NCBI RefSeq assembly: GCF_002854065.1
Contig: NZ_CP024147.1
Strand: one strand, 5' to 3'
From: Escherichia coli
GTDB taxonomy: Bacteria; Pseudomonadota; Gammaproteobacteria; Enterobacterales; Enterobacteriaceae
Length of the DNA stretch: 64,000 nucleotides
Both the position numbers and the translations under genes were made by a program. Shown one piece after another: positions 20,061-21,312 of this stretch (its first letter is position 1; each line of letters begins with the position of its first letter). Below the pieces are notes generated by a model. That model ran no database searches and was not told where the DNA came from. It saw nothing but the letters and a program-made list of their open reading frames with translations.

Positions 20061-20128
20061 GATTACTCCGCTACTCCGGTCATTCACACTCAACTAACGT
20101 TAAGCCAGTCCATCGCAGAGACTGGCTT

Positions 20129-20458
20129 ATGAAACCTTACTCCACGCTTTTTCTTTTCACCCTGCTCACGCTGACCACCGTACCGGCCCAGGCCGATATT
20201 ATCGACGACACCATTGGCAATATTCAGCAGGCGATTAACGATGCTTATAACCCTGACCGTGGGCGAGACTATGAAGATTCGCGCGACGACGGCTGGCAGC
20301 GTGAAGTGAGCGACGATCGGCGCAGACAATATGACGACCGCCGCCGCCAGTTTGAAGATCGTCGCAGGCAACTGGACGATCGCCAGCGCCAGCTTGATCA
20401 GGAGCGTCGGCAGCTGGAGGATGAAGAGCGGAGAATGGAAGATGAGTATGGGCGATGA
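20129..20458 (+). CDS. yjdP: Small secreted protein with R/D/E/Q-rich repeats (109 aa)
   Basis: Signal peptide MKPYSTLFLFTLLTLTTVPAQA then DDRRRQ-type repeats. Confidence 0.75.
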   Translation: MKPYSTLFLFTLLTLTTVPAQADIIDDTIGNIQQAINDAYNPDRGRDYEDSRDDGWQREVSDDRRRQYDDRRRQFEDRRRQLDDRQRQLDQERRQLEDEERRMEDEYGR

Positions 20459-20481
20459 TGTTGGGTATGGAGCAGGCATTG

Positions 20482-20530
20482 CCCCTCACCCCGGCCCTCG
20501 CCCCTCTGGGGAGAGGGTTAGGGTGAGGGG
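20482..20530. repeat. GC-rich nested palindromic intergenic repeat (boxC-like) between convergent yjdP and phnP
   Basis: cccctcaccc...gggtgagggg outer inverted repeat with inner ccctct-gggg-agaggg; a related copy at 47710-47737. Confidence 0.6.
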
Positions 20531-20553
20531 GCCAGCGCGCACATTCCCTCTCA

Positions 20554-21312
20554 TCACGCCACCCCAATCTCCATCCCATCAAACCCGGCTTCAAACCCCG
20601 GCGGCAGCGCGTTTTCTATCAGCCACGCATCAAACTGGTGGCTGATATGGGTCAGAACCACGCGCGGCGAGCGGATAACCTGATTCAGCGCAAGCACGGT
20701 ATTTAAATCACAGTGATTACGCGGTGCATCCTCGCGCGGCGGGTGGCTGCAATCAATCACTATTACCTGCGGCTGATTATTGAGTAAAAATTTCAGCGTT
20801 TTTTCCGGCAAGCCTGCGGTGTCAGACAGCCACGCCACCCGGCTGTGTGCTGTTTCCAGCAGATAACCGAAGGTCAGTTTTGAGTGGTTGAGCGGCAGCG
20901 GCGTGACCTGCAATCCCTGCAAATCAAACACTACAAACGGTTCCACCGTGTGGCTAAAATCAAGCAGGCCCGGATGTTTAAACAGATCGTCGCAGCCCTG
21001 TTCATCCGGTGGGCCGTAAACCGGGATCGGATCGCCCACGCCCCAGCGCAGCGGGAATAGCCCCTGCACGTGATCCATATGGTAGTGCGTCAGCAAAAAC
21101 TGCTGGAACGAACCGGGCGACCAGCGATCGGCGAGATCGTGCAGCCCGGCGTCGATCAGGGTGATTGCGTCGTTAAACTTTACTACGCCGCTGCACGGCT
21201 GGCGGCGATACTGCGGCGAGCGCCGCGCTCTGGCGCAGGCCGCACACTCGCAGCCCCATGCCGGAACGCCCTGTGCGCCGCCGGTGCCGGTGAGCGTGAG
21301 GGTCAGGTTCAT
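20554..21312 (-). CDS. phnP: Phosphoribosyl 1,2-cyclic phosphate phosphodiesterase (MBL fold)
   Basis: 252 aa, HYHMDH motif; last gene of the phn operon. Confidence 0.9.

Follow-up and report, generated by a model that had tools for sequence, protein, structure and literature searches.

The window analysed here, a stretch of 64,000 nucleotides in all, is identical to the chromosome of Escherichia coli XJ34 and includes a variant of the O-island OI167. Between yjcS and yjdP, this island (lmvR, lmuKAIZYX, lmvK) stands in place of the allose/rpiB locus (PMC10128022). The variant found in the window additionally carries a GNAT gene, downstream of a hybrid kinase gene lmvK, and this is the last gene of the island, upstream of the yjdP leader. 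The protein YjdP (109 amino acids) is periplasmic, strongly charged and so far uncharacterised; it has a Sec signal peptide and DDRRRQL repeats, and its homologues match Pfam family PF28054. Its gene is induced about 10-fold by an inhibitor of LolCDE, together with genes of the Rcs and Cpx regulons (PMC5105897), that is, when lipoprotein trafficking is blocked. Among the papers found to mention yjdP, none treats its leader. Downstream of yjdP, on the other strand, lies the phn operon. The features of the region are as follows:

19428 to 20060, + strand: GNAT-family N-acetyltransferase gene (RefSeq annotation; weak match to Pfam Acetyltransf_1).
20053 to 20074, + strand: block 1, GAGTTTGAGATTACTCCGCTAC, left border of the module that forms the yjdP leader.
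20058 to 20071, + strand: RcsB-box-like sequence TGAGATTACTCCGC, in block 1.
20095 to 20100, + strand: TAACGT, a −10-like TAnnnT element that predicts a transcription start near A20107.
20101 to 20110, + strand: 5′ arm, TAAGCCAGTC, read directly and paired in the minimum-energy fold.
20111 to 20119, + strand: loop of 9 nt, CATCGCAGA, the final two bases of which open the Shine–Dalgarno (SD) core.
20118 to 20120, + strand: SD core GAG, with a spacing of 8 nt to the ATG.
20120 to 20129, + strand: 3′ arm, GACTGGCTTA, which starts with the last SD base and runs through the SD–AUG spacer to the A of the ATG.
20129 to 20458, + strand: yjdP coding sequence (ORF list and RefSeq annotation of XJ34).

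An in-frame open reading frame beginning upstream with TTG (20057–20458) was considered as the true yjdP start and set aside, since the extension is broken by stop codons in other lineages. Other repeats lie further downstream. Between yjdP and phnP, a G/C-rich palindromic repeat (about 20470–20545) accounts for the additional BLAST places in each genome and for every weak, noise-level Rfam hit; it matches a hairpin/G-quadruplex (HPGQ) element that has been listed after yjdP (PMC5100583). Positions 20617–20647, which belong to the 3′ end of the opposite-strand gene phnP, form a perfect 10-bp inverted repeat (TATCAGCCAC ... GTGGCTGATA, with an 11-nt loop).

The original prediction placed a 9-bp inverted repeat with a 9-nt loop immediately ahead of yjdP, and this repeat is present as described: aagccagtc (20102–20110) and gactggctt (20120–20128), separated by catcgcaga. 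It has one extra pair, T20101 with A20129, the latter being the A of the yjdP ATG (20129–20131). The hairpin, of 29 nt in total, is therefore adjacent to the start codon as had been proposed, but rather than stopping one nucleotide short of it, its stem enters it. The same stem is the minimum-energy structure when the RNA from −35 to +6 is folded (−15.7 kcal/mol), with the stretch located 19–28 nt upstream of the start codon as its 5′ partner. What is sequestered runs from −9 to +1 of yjdP. The claim that the ribosome-binding site is covered holds in part: G20120, in the innermost pair, the SD–AUG spacer and A+1 are all paired, but the two other bases of the SD core sit in the loop. Calculation gives a cost of 15.8 kcal/mol for opening positions −14 to +3 of yjdP, the highest among 27 neighbouring genes, where the next value is 10.0, the typical one about 7, and most range between 4 and 9 kcal/mol. 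This cost drops to 5.4 kcal/mol when the RNA starts at −22. A hairpin that sequesters a start codon should hold the SD sequence, the start codon or both within its stem, and be stable enough to compete with the 30S subunit; the first is found here, and the second follows by calculation from the folding energy and opening cost just given. As modelled, the yjdP hairpin would qualify structurally as a leader hairpin of this kind.

The stem alone is not what makes the case. Folding of the 111-nt context is unexceptional (z = −1.83; 11 of 200 shuffles equally stable), and Markov simulations lead one to expect, in 64 kb, about 0.67 inverted repeats with perfect stems of 10 bp or more and loops of 3–12 nt. 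A single such repeat anywhere in the window is unsurprising. A repeat that falls exactly on a start codon and is kept across genera is not a matter of chance, and the significance of the hairpin comes from this position and this conservation.

The conservation is best seen in the leader as a whole. Upstream of yjdP, the spacer is 68 nt long and displays the same conserved blocks whether rpiB, the GNAT gene, an lmvK-type kinase gene, a T6SS vgrG islet or a deletion on the yjcS side is found upstream. The comparison covered 20 loci from genomes (Escherichia spp., E. albertii, E. fergusonii and seven Citrobacter lineages) and 88 further loci from a metagenome scan, partly from the Enterobacter cloacae complex, Klebsiella aerogenes, Cedecea and Kosakonia. 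In every locus the order from 5′ to 3′ is block 1, a variable stretch, TAnnnT, the hairpin region, the SD GAG, CTGGYTT and the ATG. Block 1 (consensus GAAWTTGAGATTMCTCCGCTAC) is kept throughout the 20 genome loci and the 88 metagenome loci, behind any upstream gene, and is located 60–80 nt upstream of the ATG, about 45 nt upstream of the hairpin. It holds the stop codon TGA of the GNAT gene (20058–20060) and, more generally, three unrelated upstream genes (rpiB, GNAT and the lmvK-type kinase) have their stop codon in it or just before it. Closer to yjdP, in an alignment of 65 distinct leaders, both G residues of the GAG core are invariant and its A is at least 90% conserved, K-12-type leaders having GAGG at the same SD position; CTGGC(Y)TT ahead of the ATG is conserved, and (A/G)AGCCAG, the homologue of the 5′ arm, is kept in most yjdP leaders. 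The yjdP leader thus proves to be a compact control module that is conserved from Escherichia to Citrobacter, Enterobacter, Cedecea and Kosakonia.

Block 1 could be a promoter element under selection, or a recombination hotspot. The consensus of the RcsB box is TN(G/A)GAN4TC(T/C)NA (PMC7913699). The sequence TGAGATTACTCCGC agrees with it at nine of the ten specified positions, the last base being C and not A in all lineages. This putative box is centred near −42.5 relative to the predicted start. Such a position is typical of activators that act by contact with RNA polymerase around −35. The start itself is predicted from TAnnnT, the sole conserved −10-like element, with its last T invariant and its T and A at least 90% conserved among the 65 leaders; TAnnnT would thereby act as a promoter element, and transcription would begin inside the 5′ arm. 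In the supplementary data of Kim 2012, Ettwiller 2016 and Adams 2021, neither yjdP nor any coordinate near it is listed. Two other candidates, TTGAGA as a −35 and GAGATT as a −10 element, were dropped, since the second element that each would need is not kept from one lineage to another. The only sigma-70-like match near the hairpin (TGAACA, 16 nt, TATGAT; 19880–19907, + strand) lies inside the GNAT gene, and such matches are no more numerous than in shuffles; if active, this site would yield a transcript with the complete hairpin.

Within E. coli, the exact spacer with the hairpin is found in 35 of 5426 complete genomes, and only alongside the OI167 variant; the full arrangement of OI167 with an intact GNAT gene is rarer still (5 of the 5426). 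Among the 35 carriers, the GNAT gene is 5′-truncated in O145:H28, deleted in the O157 strain TR01 and 3′-deleted in R32_14_1F. The last of these is a divergent E. coli in which most of the phn operon is deleted (L005, 6418–7559) and a gene for a low-molecular-weight tyrosine phosphatase adjoins yjdP; its leader and hairpin are 100% identical to those of the window. Citrobacter sp. MH181794 has an intact GNAT homologue of 210 amino acids at the corresponding position. In C. sedlakii-like contigs, block 1 is a 23-nt direct repeat (L060, 3538–3560 and 9155–9177) which flanks a T6SS islet of 5.6 kb, located between the kinase gene and yjdP and coding for VgrG, DUF4123, DUF3304, a Tle1-like phospholipase and one unknown ORF. 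A repeated element of the REP/BIME type was ruled out: the 81-nt spacer occurs at one place per genome in those 35 of 5426 E. coli genomes.

This restriction to island carriers within E. coli, together with the fact that megablast homology to K-12-type genomes begins at 20123, is what would be expected of a scar or by-product of island insertion, as had been suggested for this junction. The comparison with K-12-type genomes tells another story. Their rpiB–yjdP spacer also measures 68 nt and matches that of the window, ungapped, at 39 of 73 positions. Identity to K-12-type sequence amounts to 40–52% between 20040 and 20120 and to 75% between 20120 and 20160, reaching at least 95% from 20160 onwards, so that the divergence runs to about 20155, inside yjdP. 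The cassette boundary is block 1, at about 20053–20057, rather than the hairpin, and the allele switches to K-12-like sequence at about 20155–20160, within the signal-peptide codons of yjdP. As a consequence, the hairpin is only loosely at an island junction: these two boundaries flank it. Genomes free of the island, moreover, have the hairpin too: E. fergusonii, where rpiB lies upstream, E. albertii and one Citrobacter lineage (L023); so do other genera. As far as sequence goes, this is the occurrence that the original prediction had named as counting against it. A junction scar or att site would be confined to island carriers and lie at the homology breakpoint; the hairpin does neither, and origin as a scar is rejected. 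With the hairpin recognised as part of the module, the boundary of the OI167/als replacement has to be redrawn to about 20055.

The relatives display the stem in many guises. Fifty-eight of the 65 distinct leaders have at least seven predicted pairs into the region −12 to +3. In E. fergusonii, the stem extends to 13 bp (−20 kcal/mol) and the whole AUG is paired; in E. albertii, which has neither als nor OI167, it is kept with one C.A mismatch (−8.5 kcal/mol). Citrobacter lineages show it with a T.G pair or with a T.T or A.C mismatch, C. sedlakii having a perfect stem in a shifted register, and in the C. freundii complex it is made largely of G.U pairs (GGGG/TTTT). In the Enterobacter cloacae complex the arms are TAAGGCCAG and CTGGCCTTA (−20.6 kcal/mol), Cedecea has a hairpin at the same position, and in Kosakonia a shifted register brings the 5′ arm into pairing with the SD sequence itself (AGCCTC/GAGGCT). 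Stems of relatives reach −22 kcal/mol, and some pair the whole AUG through CGU/AUG. The loop differs among lineages in sequence and by indels of 1–3 nt. No such stem is present in K-12-type, EHEC-type OI167, C. koseri and some Klebsiella aerogenes-like leaders. Lineages in which the hairpin is missing or mismatched indicate that it is dispensable.

Leaders of the other types have pairings of their own. In those of the K-12 type, 14 positions of the 5′ untranslated region (−31 to −18, GTGGATAGAGTTTC) are complementary to codons 2–6 (GAAACGCTATCCGC), enclosing the SD sequence and AUG in a loop. Pairing is 13 of 14 in E. whittamii and another Escherichia lineage, and 12 of 14 in the K-12 type, and C. 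europaeus has compensatory changes in it (CGTGGAGCG/CGCTCCACG); the loci are L002 (2976–2989/3009–3022), L007 and L009 (2970–2983/3003–3016) and L022 (about 2469–2477/2506–2514). This may be a second way to mask the same initiation region. At the EHEC-type OI167 junction, lmvK is fused directly to block 1. There, a third type of leader is found, in which a 9-bp pairing (CUCGUAACA/UGUUGCGAG; L013, about 3952–3960/3984–3992) is predicted to sequester the SD sequence from further upstream.

How much of this conservation concerns pairing, as opposed to sequence? In the 65-leader alignment, the 11 pairs of the helix are formed in 81.8% of cells, compared with 27–42% when the partner is slid by 1–3 columns. 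Five pairs are changed on both sides. Compensatory sets include AAG/CTT, AGG/CCT and AAA/TTT, or GCCAG/CTGGC versus GTCAG/TTGAC. The column-shuffle control of this alignment is not significant, however, as 41–78 of 500 shuffles reach the observed values, and it follows that most of the pairing signal is conserved arm sequence. In a permutation test, the 5′ and 3′ arms of a given leader fit each other better than they fit arms of other leaders (9.2 of 11 pairs, against 8.73 ± 0.09; none of 5000 permutations as high), the register being optimised in real and control data alike, with statistics that ignore phylogeny. RNAalifold gave no consensus structure for the mixed alignment of 65 leaders, because leader types and registers are mixed in it. 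Folding energies of the plus and minus strands do not differ significantly; a count of G.U versus A.C pairs was left out of account, being biased by the choice of register. Within E. coli no covariation is possible, all 35 carriers being identical across the hairpin. Conservation of a stem that masks initiation is well supported by these data; formal covariation is suggestive only.

These results have to be set against the simplest account, a neutral palindrome. Here the 3′ arm would be kept as the context of the ribosome-binding site and the 5′ arm as part of a promoter or a discriminator, their complementarity being a coincidence inherited along with both. Column shuffles retain about 81% of the pairing, which means that conservation alone explains most of it; the stem is lost or weakened in several lineages; and, as noted above, some 0.67 such repeats per 64 kb arise by chance, with a context z-score of only −1.83. 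Against coincidence, a stem persists even where sequence and register have changed (the G.U pairs of the C. freundii complex, the SD pairing of Kosakonia, the 13 bp of E. fergusonii), own arms surpass cross arms, compensatory changes are found, and yjdP stands apart from neighbouring genes in its opening cost. On balance we find a neutral palindrome unlikely.

Selection might instead act on DNA. The repeat AAGCCAG...CTGGCTT could be an operator, bound by a dimeric regulator over the predicted start and the 5′ untranslated region, and repressing transcription. The arm sequences themselves are indeed conserved (GCCAG/CTGGC in 45–58 of the 65 leaders), the repeat would reach from about −6 to +23 relative to the predicted start, and the two strands have similar folding energies. 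Yet the spacing of the arms varies by indels of 1–3 nt, the loop being free in sequence, and the C. freundii complex, which pairs only via G.U, has no palindrome in its DNA. In all cases the end of the 3′ arm falls on the AUG or within it, which suggests a translational logic, and no regulator is known. We consider an operator improbable, somewhat more so than mere coincidence.

Termination of island transcripts had also been envisaged; the hairpin might end, or protect at the 3′ end, transcripts from the upstream gene (GNAT or lmvK here, rpiB or a kinase elsewhere). Like Rho-independent terminators, the structure is a G+C-containing stem-loop in an intergenic spacer that follows a gene; no other terminator-like site is found between the upstream gene and yjdP, and the majority type of leader has a short UUUAU after CUGGC. 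Unlike them, it has no U-tract, the stem being followed by ATGAAACC on the plus strand or AACGTTAG on the minus strand, it has a loop of 9 nt, it overlaps the next start codon, and the terminator scan calls nothing there. The class of Rho-independent terminators was rejected for these reasons. Furthermore, the hairpin travels with yjdP and not with any particular upstream gene, and it lies downstream of conserved promoter-like elements of yjdP. A terminator, or a 3′-end-protecting hairpin, must be held very improbable. The scan found no terminator-like site between the GNAT stop codon and yjdP, which makes read-through RNAs with the whole stem plausible.

Among known RNA structures, a search of Rfam over 19800–20700, with E-values up to 10, gave no match except for noise at the downstream repeat. 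RNA thermometers (ROSE, fourU) resemble the yjdP hairpin in that it masks both SD and AUG; the yjdP stem differs from them in being a perfect stretch of 10 bp, devoid of the mismatches, G.U runs and fourU or ROSE motifs that go with melting at 37–42 °C. Too stable, too perfect and with no Rfam match, it was not retained as a thermometer. In the rpoS leader, an inhibitory hairpin at the ribosome-binding site is opened by DsrA, RprA or ArcZ. There as here a stable stem lies over the initiation region of a stress-related gene, but that of yjdP, a 29-nt hairpin, is far shorter. The operator of phages MS2 and R17 is a hairpin that contains the replicase start codon and acts through bound coat protein. 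It shares with the yjdP hairpin a small size and inclusion of a start codon, so that initiation is blocked; it differs in that no binding protein is indicated for the yjdP hairpin, and the sequences are unrelated. A further likeness is with the transposase gene of IS10/Tn10, the fold-back of which is said to have been described by Davis, Simons and Kleckner in 1985: transcripts coming from outside reportedly pair an upstream segment with the start region of tnp. In yjdP, likewise, the 5′ arm would lie upstream of, or across, the predicted start, the 3′ arm being on the ribosome-binding site and start codon. The differences are that yjdP is a chromosomal stress gene and not a transposase gene, and that its start site is predicted from TAnnnT only.

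Taken together, the repeat is probably a stem-loop of the yjdP leader which hides the landing zone of the ribosome and holds translation down, as part of an ancestral module of 68 nt. The stem would mask the initiation region by pairing an upstream stretch with the segment from the last SD base, through the SD–AUG spacer, to the A of the AUG. E. coli XJ34 would have acquired the module together with this variant of OI167, K-12-type and EHEC-type alleles carrying other leaders. Of what had been proposed for the repeat, occlusion of yjdP initiation appears to be the best reading, given the sequestered positions, the opening cost and a position that is kept, provided that the 5′ arm is transcribed. 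What has been established is a stable stem that sits on the start codon, is conserved across genera and is independent of the island; it would probably lower translation of YjdP.

Which transcripts are held down would depend on where they begin. In a first form of the translational brake, yjdP has its own promoter, probably Rcs-activated, with a start near A20107, inside the 5′ arm. Its own mRNA would be free of the hairpin and translatable, and RNAs that read in from genes further upstream would be silenced by folding back. In a second form, with which the conserved pairing is also compatible, transcription starts upstream of the arm and the hairpin brakes all yjdP mRNAs. A point against the brake as a whole is that the two conserved features compete: with TAnnnT as the −10 element, mRNA from the promoter of yjdP itself could not form the stem. 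Block 1, TAnnnT and the induction upon LolCDE inhibition together suggest a stress-activated promoter whose transcript escapes the hairpin. We would lean slightly, but only slightly, toward this first form, in which, as with IS10, only read-through transcripts would be silenced, with no terminator intervening. That yjdP is subject to promoter-selective translation, an insulator in the style of IS10 for an ordinary chromosomal gene at a hotspot of cassette swapping, is a proposal that we make tentatively, being on the whole more inclined to doubt it.

The cassette upstream of yjdP keeps changing: als/rpiB, OI167, the GNAT gene and the T6SS islet have all been found there. Promoter-selective translation, if true, would explain why leader types differ and yet mask the initiation region almost universally. 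If the prediction of the start site holds, yjdP would provide a rare case of chromosomal insulation against read-through from a variable neighbour; otherwise, the hairpin would be an ordinary regulatory one. In either case it is a genuine part of the control region that yjdP owns, old, widely conserved and not described in the papers found or in Rfam, and probably acts as an ordinary translational brake.
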